A stretch of 30,086 nt of DNA from Alphaproteobacteria bacterium (GTDB lineage: Bacteria > Pseudomonadota > Alphaproteobacteria > Rs-D84): NCBI GenBank assembly GCA_024402835.1, contig JAKSSZ010000001.1, positions 1-30,086 on the forward strand, written 5' to 3'. The notes beneath the pieces are model-generated. The model had not been told where the DNA came from and searched no databases. It saw only the letters and a list, made by a program, of their open reading frames with translations. Shown one piece after another: positions 9,840 through 15,568 of the stretch. A program made the position numbers and the translations under genes. Every line of letters begins with the position of its first letter. Position 1 is the first letter of the stretch.

Positions 9840-10181
9840 TTATTTTCTAACTACATTTGTAACGGATGTATAATATGTATCGTTTTCACCACGGATGGTG
9901 CGCACAACGTAATCAACATCAAAATACTGATATGTACCGTCTTTTTCGTTATATTTGGTGACCAGTTTAGCAGAACAAGCACGACGTTGTGGCGTCACGT
10001 TGGTAAATACCTCCATTTCCACAACCTCTTCAAATCCAACTATATCCTTTTGATAGTTTTCTTTGGCTAGCTCTGTTAATAATTTTTTAACCGATGGACT
10101 CCAACATTCTGGCGCAGGTTCGGAACACCCAACCAGCGCAAACGAGATTAAACATAAAAACAATACACGCAATATTCTCAT
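9840..10181 (-). CDS. Putative lipoprotein (113 aa)
   Basis: MRILR basic N-region, hydrophobic core, lipobox LVG-C; SD AAGGA; start reassigned to 10181. Confidence 0.75.
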   Translation of the reverse strand: MRILRVLFLCLISFALVGCSEPAPECWSPSVKKLLTELAKENYQKDIVGFEEVVEMEVFTNVTPQRRACSAKLVTKYNEKDGTYQYFDVDYVVRTIRGENDTYYTSVTNVVRK

Positions 10182-10212
10182 TCCTTCACCTTTTATTTCA
10201 TAAAGCGCATGT

Positions 10213-13200
10213 CTATTCAAACACCTTATCCAATTCTGTTTCTATCGTCCCATTTTGGGCTGCAGGTAACGCATCATACTGTCTAAAATTGTGTTTTTTG
10301 ATGGTTATATCGCTATCAAATCCCAAAATATAGGCCGTTGAGATTTTATATATGATTTCCGTTGGGGCCAAACCGTATACTTGCTTTTCAAATATATGTT
10401 TCAATCTGGCTTTGTCATCTGGGAATAATTTACGCAGTTTCTTACTTTGATACAACCTTTTTACAATTTCGGTTATGTACATTCCAGATTTCATGTATAA
10501 GTCTATAAAGGTTTTATCCGGATTATCAAAACAACCTGGATTCTCTTGTTCCAGATAATCAACCATTTCTTTTACAACTTTCTTGGGTGTAAAGATTTGA
10601 TTGGTTTTCTGTGGTGGTATATAGTCAAAAATGTCTTCTTTGCTGGACTCGTCAAAATAATTCGCCAGTTTTGCTTTCAGATTCAAAAACTCTTTCACTG
10701 AATCATTAAAGACAACAGGATCAAACAAATGTCCTTCAAAATGCTTGGTTTCGCCTGTCTCAGAATCTGTATAATCACCACCATCACGCAAGAATCTGAA
10801 TTGATCTAAGGTAATACTGGTAACGTCTTGGAAAACATCATCTGGGATAATCTGATCGAAGTTTTCCAATGTTGTGTTCTCGTCCCCATAGGCCATAAGG
10901 AAAGATGGTATAGTTCTGGAAAATCCACGCAAATGGGCACGGACAGATTCTTCAATACCTTCTTTTTCTTTCTTGCGTTTTTCGGTTTCAACGGTTTTTA
11001 CTATGGTTTCACCGGCATTTTTTACAACCGTGTCCACACTACCTTTTACCGTATCTATAAATGTTTTATGAATCTTGTTTTTCTGAGAGTCATATTTGGC
11101 ATTAATTTTTGCTATTTCTGTTTTAGATGATGCCTCTGCTATTTCTTTATTTCGTTCTAATTCATTCTTGTTATTTTCTATTTGATATGCAGAATATGCC
11201 TTTATCAAAGCTGTATTTGCATCAGACGTAATTGCCCTGGATACTGCTTGTTGGGCACTTTTACTCATTTCAGTGCCGTATGACTCTTTTGCAGTTTCTA
11301 CCAAAGATGTTGTAACGGTATCAAAGGCTGCCTTGTACTTTGCAAATTCATCAGGCTCACCAGCTTTTTGTTGATTTATTTCGTCTACTGTATCTAATAA
11401 ATCTTGACTAAGCCCATATATTTTATCACCAAATACTTCCTGTGCCTGGCCAATAACTATATCTTGTGAAACTTCAACTTCGCCTTCGTCATTAATTGCC
11501 AGATTTTCTTTTATTTCTGGAGTTACCAATACTTGTTCTTTTGTTGGTTCCAGTTGCTTTATAACATCTATGATCTCTGTTGGTGCATTGAATATATTAC
11601 TTATGTTTTGGAACAAGAAATTACTCATAAACCCACGTCTAACGACCTCTTGCGAATGAATCTTGCGTGGGATGGACAATACTTTTTCCGCATCCAACGT
11701 TATCATTTCACCTTCTTCGTCTTCACCATATACAGGGAAAAAGTTCAATAATTCGTATACATGTTTCTTTCTTGCTGTAATATCACCTTTGCCAGAAGAA
11801 GTATCCGGGCTCAAGTTATTCGCAAATTGTTCTACTATGGTCAAAGTTCTTGCCGGATCAAAATCAAACACATATGCATTTTCTTTTCTATAAAAATCTT
11901 TATTTATTTTAAACAAACACGGGTTTTGTGCACGAAAAGCCGCTTGCATATATAGTGCTGGACTTTCAATATTACTTAGCATTAAAACGGCAGTCCATTC
12001 TGGCACAGTTATACCTGTTGTTAATTGTCCCACAGATAAAGTTATTGTTTTATCGTGTTCAGCAATTGCTTTTTTTACTCTATCCAAAGATCTTTTGTTT
12101 TCTTCATCATCATCTATTCTGCCATTGCCAGCCGCCAAGACAACTTCATATTCACCAAAAACCTCATGATCACGCAGTTTTTTAGCTAATGCTTTTGCAC
12201 TGTCAACACGATTTAATAACCAAAAAGTATGCCTTAATTCATCACGTAATTCTGGCGTAGAGAATGGAAACCTAGTTTGGTTGATCAACGCATCTAAAAA
12301 CTTGTCTACTGCCTCTTCATGCTTGAATCTACCATCAGAATTTGTGGCAAAAAATTCGTTCAAATCAAATGCGTACTCTTCATTTTGCCCATCATTATTA
12401 AAGTCTGCACCCGTTCTTGCTTTAGCTAATACTATTTCTGACATTTGATAGGTGTATAGATTTAATTGAGGCAAAGATTCATACGGATTTTCTATTCCTA
12501 GATTTTTAGAATTTTTATACCATTCTCTTTTTGCTTTCTGTTCATCTGCATAAGTCCAGTTGAATATAGCTTGTTCTTCAAACTTATTATTTGCCAAAGC
12601 TTTAAATGTTGTACCAGTCAAATGAAGAGTATATTTACGTTTTATTTGATCAAATGCTATATCAGTCTTATACGTATCTACACCTTCATGGGCTTCATCA
12701 ATCACTAATATATCCCATTCTAAATCTGCTATTTCTTTTAATTTATTATGTTTTCCTCCAAAGTAAATAGACCCTTTTAAATCTTGCAATGAAACGAACT
12801 CTATACAACCTTTATGGTTTGGCTCTGATAAATGTTTATTAATATATACTTCCCTACTCAATACATATTTTTTGCCCTTTAACTCGTCTACCTGACTAAC
12901 GAAATAGTATCCAGATTCTGTTCCCATAAACTTTACATAATCATCATACCAAGAATTTGCAATAGATGGCCTATTAGTAACAATTAATACTTTTTTTGCA
13001 CATAATTTTTTGCACAAATCATATGTAGATAATGTTTTTCCAAATCTTGGTTTACAATTCCACAAATACTCTGGTTCAGAGCTTTCTCCATTCGTTCTGA
13101 AATAATTATTTGCATAATTTACCGCTTTATATTGTTCTTCACGTAAATTATATGACATAGCAGAACTAGATTCATAAATACCCATGTTATCTCTAAATTT

Positions 13201-13557
13201 AATAAATCGCTCATGAGAATCTTGTGGACTTATAAAAAACCATTCCGTAAGTTCATTGTGTTTGTTGCCTTCTTGATCTGTATATTCATACGATTCTTGT
13301 TGAATATCATCTTTTACCAAATACGCATGAAAGGCTTTGTCATTAAAAGTTTTACCATTTTTAAACACAGCGTCTTCAACCCATTCTGTTATATGTCGTA
13401 CAGCAAGTGTTTGAATTTGTTCCCTAATACGTGTTTCTACTTCTCGTTCTGTATAACCTATCTTTGTCCAACCATTTTTTGATGGTATATCAGGAGTTGT
13501 ATAAGCATAACATTTTGGTTCAACTTTTTTACTGGTAGATATATTTAATTTTGTCAT
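10213..13557 (-). CDS. Restriction subunit: GIY-YIG(T5orf172-like) nuclease, SF2 helicase and C-terminal N-half of an amino-methyltransferase fold
   Basis: CYAYT..GWTKIGYT..TRIREQ..EWF; CKPRFGKT; IDEAH; QAAFRAQ; C-terminal QIFTP / FIDLYMKSGMYI / VYGLAPTE / NFRQYDAL. Confidence 0.85.
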   Translation of the reverse strand: MTKLNISTSKKVEPKCYAYTTPDIPSKNGWTKIGYTEREVETRIREQIQTLAVRHITEWVEDAVFKNGKTFNDKAFHAYLVKDDIQQESYEYTDQEGNKHNELTEWFFISPQDSHERFIKFRDNMGIYESSSAMSYNLREEQYKAVNYANNYFRTNGESSEPEYLWNCKPRFGKTLSTYDLCKKLCAKKVLIVTNRPSIANSWYDDYVKFMGTESGYYFVSQVDELKGKKYVLSREVYINKHLSEPNHKGCIEFVSLQDLKGSIYFGGKHNKLKEIADLEWDILVIDEAHEGVDTYKTDIAFDQIKRKYTLHLTGTTFKALANNKFEEQAIFNWTYADEQKAKREWYKNSKNLGIENPYESLPQLNLYTYQMSEIVLAKARTGADFNNDGQNEEYAFDLNEFFATNSDGRFKHEEAVDKFLDALINQTRFPFSTPELRDELRHTFWLLNRVDSAKALAKKLRDHEVFGEYEVVLAAGNGRIDDDEENKRSLDRVKKAIAEHDKTITLSVGQLTTGITVPEWTAVLMLSNIESPALYMQAAFRAQNPCLFKINKDFYRKENAYVFDFDPARTLTIVEQFANNLSPDTSSGKGDITARKKHVYELLNFFPVYGEDEEGEMITLDAEKVLSIPRKIHSQEVVRRGFMSNFLFQNISNIFNAPTEIIDVIKQLEPTKEQVLVTPEIKENLAINDEGEVEVSQDIVIGQAQEVFGDKIYGLSQDLLDTVDEINQQKAGEPDEFAKYKAAFDTVTTSLVETAKESYGTEMSKSAQQAVSRAITSDANTALIKAYSAYQIENNKNELERNKEIAEASSKTEIAKINAKYDSQKNKIHKTFIDTVKGSVDTVVKNAGETIVKTVETEKRKKEKEGIEESVRAHLRGFSRTIPSFLMAYGDENTTLENFDQIIPDDVFQDVTSITLDQFRFLRDGGDYTDSETGETKHFEGHLFDPVVFNDSVKEFLNLKAKLANYFDESSKEDIFDYIPPQKTNQIFTPKKVVKEMVDYLEQENPGCFDNPDKTFIDLYMKSGMYITEIVKRLYQSKKLRKLFPDDKARLKHIFEKQVYGLAPTEIIYKISTAYILGFDSDITIKKHNFRQYDALPAAQNGTIETELDKVFE

Positions 13558-14582
13558 TATGCCATCTCCCTTACATGTGTTTCAATAAACTCAATTTCAT
13601 CTTTATCCAATCCGTATTTTTTATAGAGTTGTAAATCTATTTCATGAATGGATTTTGACCAATCAATATCCGATTTATCTGTAAAATCTTGCAAAGGAAC
13701 ATATTTCCATACAGGTCTAGAATTACTTTGGGTTACTTTTAATATCCCCAACATAGCTCTACAAAATTTTGTTTTTATATATTTCATACAATTTATTGCT
13801 AGATTTTTATTGTTAAAATTACCAATTGATAAAAATGTTTGGGTGTGGCCAACAAGTGGTTCGCCAACAAGTGGTGTTGAAAGAACTTCCCCCAAAGCAC
13901 CAGATCCGTTAGCATTTGGAAGAAAAACTTTATAATTATTAAAATTATTTGGTGCAACAATATATCTTGCATCTATATACATATTAGCCCGTTCATTGTT
14001 TTTTCTACCAACAATACAAACTGAATTTGAAAATTTTTTTTCAAAGAAAATCATATTATATAAATTATCTAACACATTAGATTTTAAATCATATTTATGT
14101 CCCTTACTTAATAACGCTTCAATATCTGGGTGTTCTTTATGCATAAACTCTGTAAAATGATATGATTCTGCTGCGTATATAATTTCACACATATTTGTTT
14201 TAAATTTCGTTTTTACTTTGTTCAAAATAGAATTTAGCTCTTTAAACGATGTAAAAAAACCAATTTTTCCGTATTTAACTTTGCTGTTTCTACAAGTAAT
14301 AGCAATTCCACCTTTTATATCTGTATTTGCAAATATTTTTTTACTAGCAGGTTCATAATCAAGCACTTTAAAATATTCGTCTTCCAACATTTTTTTATTC
14401 CAAATTTTCGGTGTTGAACCAGCATCAAATAAAAATCTTGCGGGGTGGATCATTATTGTAAATTTAGATAATTGATATGCAGATTCTAAAAAATGGTTAT
14501 ATACTGGTGGTGCATAACTTTCATTTTTTCCAATTGTTGCTTCTTGGTACGGAGGGTTTCCTATACAAAAATCAAATTTCAT
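13557..14582 (-). CDS. Adenine methyltransferase C-terminal half (motif IV NPPY onward plus target-recognition domain), Eco57I-like
   Basis: Begins MKFDFCIGNPPYQE; IHPARFLF; ATGA overlap with the upstream gene and TAATG overlap with the downstream gene; start reassigned to 14582. Confidence 0.85.
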   Translation of the reverse strand: MKFDFCIGNPPYQEATIGKNESYAPPVYNHFLESAYQLSKFTIMIHPARFLFDAGSTPKIWNKKMLEDEYFKVLDYEPASKKIFANTDIKGGIAITCRNSKVKYGKIGFFTSFKELNSILNKVKTKFKTNMCEIIYAAESYHFTEFMHKEHPDIEALLSKGHKYDLKSNVLDNLYNMIFFEKKFSNSVCIVGRKNNERANMYIDARYIVAPNNFNNYKVFLPNANGSGALGEVLSTPLVGEPLVGHTQTFLSIGNFNNKNLAINCMKYIKTKFCRAMLGILKVTQSNSRPVWKYVPLQDFTDKSDIDWSKSIHEIDLQLYKKYGLDKDEIEFIETHVREMA

Positions 14583-15568
14583 TCTTGATCCTTTTTTATA
14601 TCTTTGAAATAAACTGGTCGGTTGTTTTCCCAATCCATAATACTACATGGCATGGACAGGGTTGTTTGTAATTCCGTTGTATCAAACAGGTTCCTGTTTG
14701 GGTTATCTATGGTGCCGGTTGGCGTGCAATCACTTAATCCATCCATTTGCCAGATGTTCCATGCGATTATTTGGGCTATCTTTTTTTGTTTTTGAATATT
14801 TGGTTCACTGCCAAATTTGAATTTATAATTATCAATAAATGTGTACAGCAGGTTTTCACGTGCCAGCAGCAAATTATCCCCCTGGTATTCATAACCGTAT
14901 GTGCTTTGATATGCTTTTACCACCCAATCAAACCAATACCGCTCTGAATTCATATTTTCATTGATAACACGCAATTTTCTGTCCAGTTGACCGATACGTT
15001 GTTCTATGGGTATTATTTTCCCATTTGTTGTGTCGTATGGTGATACCAGGTATGGGGCCTCGCCACATGTAATTTCCAGGCGTTTTGATAATACATATTT
15101 GTGCCATTGATTTGATCCGGATGGGAATATTGGTTCGTTTGTTGCCAGCCAGGTATGATCATCGTTAACGTTGTTGAAAACATTTGACCGCCCAAACCAT
15201 TCTTCGTCACAATAATTATTCATTTCATTGCATATCCATGATGGGGTAAAGACCTCGGCATGGGTGCGTGTGCGTTCTTTTTGATAACACTTTTCTTTCA
15301 AAATACGTGGTTGAATCAGGTTTTTGTTTTTATGTCTGGCAATCAAATCACGGGTAATTTGACACCCAGATTTATATTTACAACCATAACCAGAATAATC
15401 ATCACATGCCCACAGGATGTTTCGACCTGTGCTCTTGTCTTGCAACAATATATCCAAAATATCTTTATGTAAATCCCGTTCAATAATATCAATGGCAGCA
15501 ATATCACAATTAGCATCCATTTCTGGAATTTTACATTTTTTAATATTCTTTTGGTCAAGTACTGCCAC
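14579..15568 (-). CDS. Adenine methyltransferase N-terminal half (motifs X, I, II, III; SAM-binding)
   Basis: AEVFTP (X), LEITCGEAPYL (I), YGYEYQ (II), NIWQMDGL (III); no NPPY; GTG start. Confidence 0.8.
   Translation of the reverse strand: MAVLDQKNIKKCKIPEMDANCDIAAIDIIERDLHKDILDILLQDKSTGRNILWACDDYSGYGCKYKSGCQITRDLIARHKNKNLIQPRILKEKCYQKERTRTHAEVFTPSWICNEMNNYCDEEWFGRSNVFNNVNDDHTWLATNEPIFPSGSNQWHKYVLSKRLEITCGEAPYLVSPYDTTNGKIIPIEQRIGQLDRKLRVINENMNSERYWFDWVVKAYQSTYGYEYQGDNLLLARENLLYTFIDNYKFKFGSEPNIQKQKKIAQIIAWNIWQMDGLSDCTPTGTIDNPNRNLFDTTELQTTLSMPCSIMDWENNRPVYFKDIKKDQE

Follow-up and report, generated by a model that had tools for sequence, protein, structure and literature searches.

Gamma-class amino-methyltransferases carry their motifs in the order X-I-II-III-IV, followed by a target recognition domain (TRD), in one chain. 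In the Type ISP restriction-modification (R-M) enzymes, represented here by LlaGI and LlaBIII (PDB 5ffj, 4xqk; PMC3553950, PMC2790908), the order is nuclease, superfamily 2 (SF2) helicase-like motor, helical linker, gamma-class adenine methylase and TRD; such enzymes translocate at the expense of ATP and cleave where those from head-to-head sites collide. A locus with a similar order of parts, divided among three proteins, was analysed in a 30,086-nt stretch of DNA from an alphaproteobacterium (the window). Its three co-directional minus-strand genes, P1, P2 and P3, span positions 10213-15568. Judged from its sequence, the locus is an intact three-gene DNA R-M system with a methylase cut in two. 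Our reading, to which we give a probability of about 0.58, is that it encodes an ATP-dependent, Type ISP-like system of three proteins, in which P2 would pair with P1 to modify DNA and with the C-terminal part of P3, a second N-half, to restrict it.

How far does the comparison with Type ISP go? An SF2 helicase-like ATPase lies between nuclease and methylase, the predicted methylase-TRD parts superpose on LlaGI and LlaBIII (Z 16-18.6), and single-chain homologues of this family, of ~1,300-1,500 aa, exist. The differences are that three polypeptides are present, with the methylase cut between motifs III and IV; that the nuclease is T5orf172/GIY-YIG-like and not Mrr/PD-(D/E)xK; and that an extra canonical half for binding S-adenosylmethionine (AdoMet), P1, is always encoded, whereas the motor-borne half is without the motif II acid. 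The system works most like Type ISP, although two of the features that define this type, the single polypeptide and the Mrr nuclease, are lacking.

The Type IIG/IIL enzymes and the solitary gamma methylases (Eco57I, MmeI, DrdV, CamA, M.BseCI, BrxX/PglX) resemble the locus in the fold of the NPPY half and TRD and give the best structural matches, and PADLOC classes the parts found here as MTase_II and REase_MTase_IIG. Those enzymes, however, are single-chain proteins with no helicase motor and one AdoMet-binding half, whereas here the fold is split and has two alternative halves. With Type I systems there is a likeness in logic: one specificity subunit, HsdS, serves both modification and motor-driven restriction (in M2S and R2M2S), and the specificity gene is freely exchanged. 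The shared subunit proposed here differs in that it also holds half of a catalytic Rossmann fold, and it has only one TRD and lacks the HsdS coiled-coil; no HsdS or HsdM family match was found at the locus, where neither an HsdS with two TRDs nor a complete HsdM is present. The DnmA-YeeB-YeeC set of Bacillus subtilis and Vibrio comprises an adenine methylase for an asymmetric site, an SF2 helicase and a T5orf172/GIY-YIG protein in a conserved operon (PMC9973331). Compared by description, its MmeI-like methylase is complete in one chain, helicase and nuclease are two distinct proteins, and neither a split fold nor a second N-half is described.

Split DNA methylases are represented by M.AquI and M.EcoHK31I. 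Fragments of the cytosine-5 methylase M.SssI also complement one another (PMC3404938). The locus shares with split cytosine-5 methylases a methylase fold built from two polypeptides, but those enzymes modify cytosine-5, are cut elsewhere and have one partner each; in none of them is there a second, alternative partner attached to a restriction motor. MANTIS/Gao_RL, also considered, is unrelated in composition. No published account of a methylase divided between motifs III and IV and provided with alternative N-halves, two in number, was found in the literature searched, most subscription journals and REBASE being outside that search. An earlier annotation of the window (the original prediction) had remarked that such loci carry generic R-M names and that no mechanistic description was known to it; homologues do bear generic names, and no paper on the arrangement was found.

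The original prediction described translationally coupled genes, a methyltransferase divided at motifs III/IV and a second N-half on the restriction enzyme. Translations and motif positions bear out its coordinates, motifs and gene anatomy, and the ATGA and TAATG overlaps it reported are both at the junctions named (Table 1); Shine-Dalgarno (SD)-like sequences precede both the P2 and P3 starts. P1 had been said to hold motifs X to III only: all four were found, and (D/N)PPY is absent. Across the P1 family E165 (motif I), E227 (motif II, YG[YF]E) and D276 (motif III, Asp/Asn) are invariant or nearly so, and motif I resembles that of M.TaqI. The PADLOC MTase_II model PDLC03390 matches P1 over its full length (2.5e-109), while Pfam gave no match to P1. 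More than 8,000 P1 homologues are found, mostly of 310-330 aa. The few that are fused to an Eco57I domain are colinear with P1 and then with P2, the Met of P2 being retained.

P2 had been claimed to start at motif IV and to carry the TRD, and it does begin with FDFCIGNPPY close to its N-terminus (MKFDFCIGNPPYQ). Pfam Eco57I (PF07669) is matched from profile positions 70-171 of 171 only (1.3e-15). The (D/N)PP(Y/F) of motif IV is followed by motifs V-VIII and a C-terminal TRD, as in gamma-class enzymes, and in structural comparison the TRD region matches CamA, M.BseCI and MmeI. Among PADLOC models P2 matches MTase_II PDLC03375, together with the C-terminus (positions 1010-1359) of the 1,359-position REase_MTase_IIG model PDLC03626; P3 matches positions 335-627 of the latter, and neither protein matches it end to end. 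That P3 and P2 match two ends of one Type IIG model is a first hint that they form one protein elsewhere. Sequence searches of the PDB with P1, P2 and P3 gave nothing useful, and NCBIfam has no model for them.

P3 was labelled a GIY-YIG/SF2 helicase by the original prediction. The helicase part of this label stands (ResIII, 1.2e-11). The T5orf172 match at residues 17-113 is sub-threshold in the window protein (19.6 bits, cut-off 20; E=0.0013), and the nuclease assignment draws on P3 homologues that exceed the cut-off for PF10544/PF13455 (T5orf172/MUG113, GIY-YIG clan) and on the conserved residues Y19, KIGYT, R43, H77 and E105. Residues 641-880 would act as a coupler. In the predicted model a helical segment, residues 860-959 of the homologue P0251 (~860-975 of window P3), aligns with the regions that precede the methylase in LlaBIII, BsaXI and HsdM; its equivalent lies mostly beyond P3 residue 880.

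The C-terminus of P3 was thought to repeat motifs X-I-II-III in degenerate form. The motifs are indeed there, without NPPY. Decay, on the other hand, is not what is seen: no other part of P3 is as well conserved. Identity is 72-88% across phyla, and 76-88% within the group of >7,600 proteins to which the window's half belongs, and the family has a motif set of its own. In 23 diverse helicase-borne halves the TP of motif X is invariant and the K-x-G of motif I nearly so; K-S/T-G replaces G-x-G, and the motif I acid and most of the motif III Asp are kept. The motif II acid is lacking in at least 21 of the 23, its place being taken by Ala, Pro, Thr, Cys, Ser, Leu or Tyr. These features suggest a constrained but non-canonical half that probably binds AdoMet poorly.

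Natural fusions connect P2 with both partners. When 1.8 billion representatives were searched with P2 by phmmer, its filters switched off, 2,932 matches were obtained, of which the best 150 representatives at 50% identity were classified. Among these 150 the P2 module is free in 59 (some are fragments); 38 carry it after a P1-like half and ~53 after a P3-like helicase protein. The 1,447-aa P0251, for example, has the P3 nuclease, helicase, middle part and C-terminal half, and P2 six residues on. When the tail of P3 and the head of P2 from the window were aligned with 16 such fusions, they proved colinear through X, I, II, III and FDxxxGNPPY. Thus motifs X, I, II, III and IV, nowhere on one polypeptide in the window, are on one in the fused homologues.

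Complete loci, 62 in all and seeded on P1, show three main layouts: P1, P2 and P3 as separate genes (19 loci), P1 and P2 fused with P3 separate (13), and P1 separate with helicase, second N-half and P2 in one gene (29). Every layout has two N-halves and one NPPY/TRD half. Directly upstream of the P3-P2 fusions P0251 and P0270 is a canonical N-half gene without NPPY (HGEVFTP, LEPSAGEGAFL, YGIELLED). In P0283 (L083:4001-8413, 1,470 aa), nuclease, helicase, variant N-half, canonical N-half and one NPPY/TRD are all in a single chain, and no separate N-half gene was found near it. In the P1 tree the loci with the helicase-fused layout form a single clade (support 97/84), while split and P1-P2 fused forms have interconverted at least 5-6 times, as would be expected if both forms work.

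Fused genes have a further feature: a start codon, mostly ATG but GTG or TTG in several, is found seven to ten codons ahead of the G of GNPPY. An internal start together with an SD-like motif is present in 23 of 29 helicase fusions and in 11 of 13 P1-P2 fusions, compared with 5-6% of control windows from the same open reading frames. This conservation suggests that free P2 may be translated, from internal starts where it is fused, in every layout.

Do the two N-halves complete the same fold? The cut between motifs III and IV falls where the AdoMet-binding subdomain meets the catalytic subdomain, at the known dividing line of the units that are circularly permuted from one amino-methylase class to another. 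P1 and P2 were modelled with AlphaFold2 (AF2) as an artificially joined chain, with X at the break and an alignment of 20 natural fusions, so that the model is supportive of a heterodimer and not proof of one. It has a predicted local distance difference test score (pLDDT) of 83.4 and a predicted template modelling score of 0.76, and it shows a complete class I Rossmann methylase fold, of which P1 residues ~105-329 form the first half. CamA is the best match (Z 19.1, residues 86-654), followed by MmeI (18.4), LlaGI (16.7, 5ffj) and 4xqk (16.3); DrdV, BrxX and M.BseCI are also matched. The alignments with KsgA and Erm38 cover residues 87-435 and run through the break at 329/330 (Z 10-12). As a stand-in for the C-terminus of window P3 with P2, the natural fusion P0251 was modelled from residue 860 to 1447 (pLDDT 85.9). 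Here the matches are CamA (Z 20.2), LlaGI (18.6), 4xqk (17.7) and also DrdV, and ErmC', KsgA and Dim1 align to model residues 117-346, across the P3/P2 junction at 245; the P3-type half supplies strands 1-3 of the modelled Rossmann domain. By these predictions, strands 1-3 of one and the same fold can come from either N-half.

The remaining evidence concerns specificity. The body of P2 is exchanged between conserved flanks, which is the expected behaviour of a specificity cassette. In contigs assembled from public runs of other samples (assembled contigs, not reads, were compared), 753 bases of the P2 body are replaced by 765 others in run X5, and 900 by 967 in run X9, a pig gut sample; P1 and the 3' end of P2 are still ~94% identical to the window in both. 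Relative to the closest relatives, loci L001 and L002, P2 is 17-36% identical, P1 76-78% and P3 55-88% depending on the segment. Replacement of the P2 body in near-identical relatives from pig gut and other metagenomes points to exchange of the cassette within natural populations. The window's own genome contains no further P2 or TRD cassette. The region upstream of P1 (15569-16130) was also inspected for an invertible promoter, and the result was unconvincing, only weak imperfect inverted repeats being present (the longest 72-80% complementary).

How might such a system function? A gamma-class N6-adenine methylase would be divided between its AdoMet-binding (X, I-III) and catalytic (IV-VIII) subdomains, and P2, as catalytic subdomain plus TRD, would be the source of sequence specificity. 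P1 with P2 would form the modification methylase, which probably methylates one strand of an asymmetric site, as CamA, MmeI, BrxX and LlaGI do. P2 with the N-half of P3 would form a sequence-specific, methylation-sensitive reader for the GIY-YIG-like nuclease and SF2 motor, and P3 would cut unmodified DNA. Given the K-S/T-G in place of G-x-G and the missing motif II carboxylate, P3:P2 probably transfers methyl groups poorly or not at all; if so, modification would be separated from restriction by the identity of the N-half that holds P2. The observations themselves are of gene anatomy, conservation, patterns of fusion, motif differences and predicted folds; from them we infer that there are two alternative complexes, what each would do, and that modification is of one strand. 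Fusion of the NPPY/TRD part to either partner, the locus layouts and the AF2 folds all argue, on comparative and structural grounds, for the shared subunit that the original prediction put forward. A more specific version can be entertained tentatively, as a possibility with the balance against it: P2 toggles between a cofactor-competent P1 half and a cofactor-blind P3 half, the choice to cut or modify is made by exchange of half a Rossmann domain, and internal starts supply free P2.

Several observations weigh against the shared-subunit reading. A missing motif II acid is no proof of lost AdoMet binding. The P3 half is highly conserved while P2 varies freely, unlike simple co-evolving partners. 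The SD-like bases of the internal starts overlap conserved Lys-(Glu/Gly)-Gly codons, and the Met, Val or Leu could reflect a constraint at the protein level. In fused layouts one N-half has no obvious partner unless internal initiation or domain exchange, both of which we infer, provides it. BLASTP and hhalign align P1 with the P3 C-terminus at motif X only (hhalign probability 36%), so that a common fold rests on structure prediction and fused homologues; for the P3 half the structural case comes from the homologue P0251 and not from the window protein.

The first alternative, which we consider rather unlikely, is that both assemblies are active methylases: P3:P2 would be a full Type ISP/IIG-like enzyme whose variant P3 motifs still bind AdoMet, and P1:P2 an accessory, much as M.Eco57I accompanies Eco57I as a stand-alone methylase. 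It is consistent with the natural P3-P2 fusions, which match the entire Eco57I methylase profile and fold like complete methylases, and with the motif X TP, motif I acid and most of the motif III Asp kept in the helicase-borne half. With the same catalytic half and TRD, however, the same base would be modified, and a second methylase would bring no obvious gain. The motif II acid is missing family-wide and G-x-G has become K-S/T-G, and a canonical N-half is kept beside every fused form.

Could the P3 half instead be a docking or regulatory pseudo-domain, which tethers the nuclease-motor to a self-sufficient P1:P2 methylase as Type III Res is recruited by Mod? This would suit its conservation, far higher than that of P2, its persistence in P0283 with a complete methylase fused behind it, and the layouts with fused P1-P2, where the P3 half has no free NPPY partner. 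The idea is nonetheless improbable, as NPPY-TRD stands directly and colinearly behind the P3-type half in 29 of 62 loci and in many representatives; there, by prediction, strands 1-3 of the catalytic Rossmann fold come from the P3-type half.

The junction between P1 and P2 raises another question: is the division real, or bridged during translation? The heptamer A_AAA_AAG (14597-14591) has the right register, the window, L001 and L002 all place P2 in the -1 frame, and fused, colinear P1-P2 genes exist, so a programmed -1 frameshift might make a single-chain methylase the working form in this clade. Comparison of junctions makes this most improbable, and as a conserved feature it was rejected. 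Junctions differ among the 19 split loci, and P2 in the -1 frame with this heptamer is confined to the window and its two closest relatives; elsewhere P2 is read in the +1 frame, shares the P1 frame but follows a stop codon, or is set off by a spacer. Whole genes also lie between the halves: an MNT/HEPN-like pair with a 278-aa gene (L062:6872-8452), a 347-aa gene (L072:6886-7929; L076:6328-7371), elsewhere a 58-aa gene, and an IS256 transposase in a Bifidobacterium longum plasmid (L087:7038-8222). The split genes tolerate separation by inserts. Conserved Lys-Lys-Gly codons account for the heptamer, and P2 has its own ATG and SD-like sequence. Contigs from other gut metagenomes cross the window P1/P2 junction with no indel. 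The original prediction had named an assembly frameshift as one way in which it could fail; the varied junctions, the inserts and these independent, indel-free contigs together exclude it. That an ordinary methylase gene has been broken, by a frameshift that made it a pseudogene or by an error of assembly, has almost nothing left to recommend it. There is an A6 run at the junction, and a single added A would join the two frames; yet among thousands of homologues the halves occur most often as stand-alone proteins, each half has a full-length PADLOC model, and junctions vary between loci and lack an indel in other samples.

The family is widespread and the locus intact, and by sequence and models this is a Type ISP/IIG-like form of R-M that differs from those described. 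P1 homologues are present in at least 597 species representatives, with hosts that include Alphaproteobacteria, Bacillota, Bacteroidota, Verrucomicrobiota, Planctomycetota, Fibrobacterota, Actinomycetota, Melainabacteria and Mycoplasmopsis. The window system is closest to those of metagenome-assembled genomes (MAGs) of Alphaproteobacteria/'Candidatus Enterousia'. Relatives of P1, under generic names, are also on plasmids of Enterococcus faecium, B. longum, Lactiplantibacillus, Pediococcus and Loigolactobacillus. On the E. faecium conjugative plasmid pK195-6b-A (L088:6010-12345) a 282-aa N-half is paired with a 1,412-aa helicase-methylase; a gene for a helix-turn-helix regulator precedes the pair and a DUF262 gene follows it, possibly forming a defence cluster on this Inc18 plasmid.

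If the shared-subunit reading is correct, this would be a very common R-M design, spread over those species, many phyla and plasmids, in which the swap of one small gene changes specificity. It would extend the Type I idea of shared specificity to a shared piece of the catalytic fold, and would explain thousands of genes now named 'restriction endonuclease subunit M', 'Eco57I domain protein' or 'DEAD/DEAH helicase'. As a natural case of fold complementation it could be of use for programmable methylases. Tractable hosts allow a direct test.

Table 1. Genes, junctions, motifs and domains of the three-gene locus, with positions in the window
Feature	Position	Strand	Description
P1	14579..15568	-	329 aa, GTG start; free AdoMet-binding half of gamma-class N6-adenine methylase; N-terminal helical region; without NPPY
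P1 motif X	15242..15259	-	AEVFTP, residues 104-109; invariant across P1 family
P1 motif I	15047..15079	-	LEITCGEAPYL, residues 164-174; E-x-x-C-G-E-A-P invariant
P1 motif II	14876..14899	-	YGYEYQGD, residues 224-231; conserved acid E227, E in 21/21 sequences
P1 motif III	14738..14752	-	WQMDG, residues 273-277
P1/P2 junction	14579..14597	-	A_AAA_AAG 14597-14591; SD-like AAGGA 14593-14589; ATGA stop/start overlap 14582-14579
P2	13557..14582	-	341 aa, ATG at 14582; catalytic half (motifs IV-VIII) and TRD; proposed shared subunit
P2 motif IV	14544..14576	-	FDFCIGNPPYQ; GNPPY invariant in family
P2 body	13788..14540	-	Residues ~15-265; swapped for unrelated sequence of similar length in near relatives; behaves as specificity cassette
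P2/P3 overlap	13555..13559	-	TAATG stop/start overlap; AGGGAG upstream
P3	10213..13557	-	1114 aa; T5orf172/GIY-YIG-like nuclease, SF2 helicase, C-terminal second N-half
P3 residues 1-130	13168..13557	-	T5orf172/GIY-YIG-like nuclease domain
P3 residues 131-640	11638..13167	-	SF2 helicase-like ATPase; ResIII 1.2e-11; Walker A KPRFGKT and DEAH invariant
P3 residues 641-880	10918..11637	-	Helical linker, coupler-like; least conserved part of P3; no family match
P3 residues 881-1114	10216..10917	-	Second N-half; motifs X-III; ends exactly where motif IV would start
P3 N-half motifs			NQIFTP 986-991 (X); FIDLYMKSGMYI 1017-1028 (I, FIDLYMKSG); VYGLAPTE 1060-1067 (II, without acid); NFRQYDAL 1090-1097 (III)

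The source MAG is an 802-kb animal-gut assembly of 156 contigs, 82% complete, and the window is an entire 30-kb contig of it. The host genome is very small for the carrier of an island rich in defence and toxin-antitoxin genes. Beyond P3, a small gene at 9840-10220 on the minus strand overlaps the P3 stop by 8 nt and does not adjoin P3 in the other loci inspected. Its product has a lipoprotein-like signal from Met14 (MRILRVLFLCLISFALVGC...) and could be a passenger of the island or act in surface exclusion.

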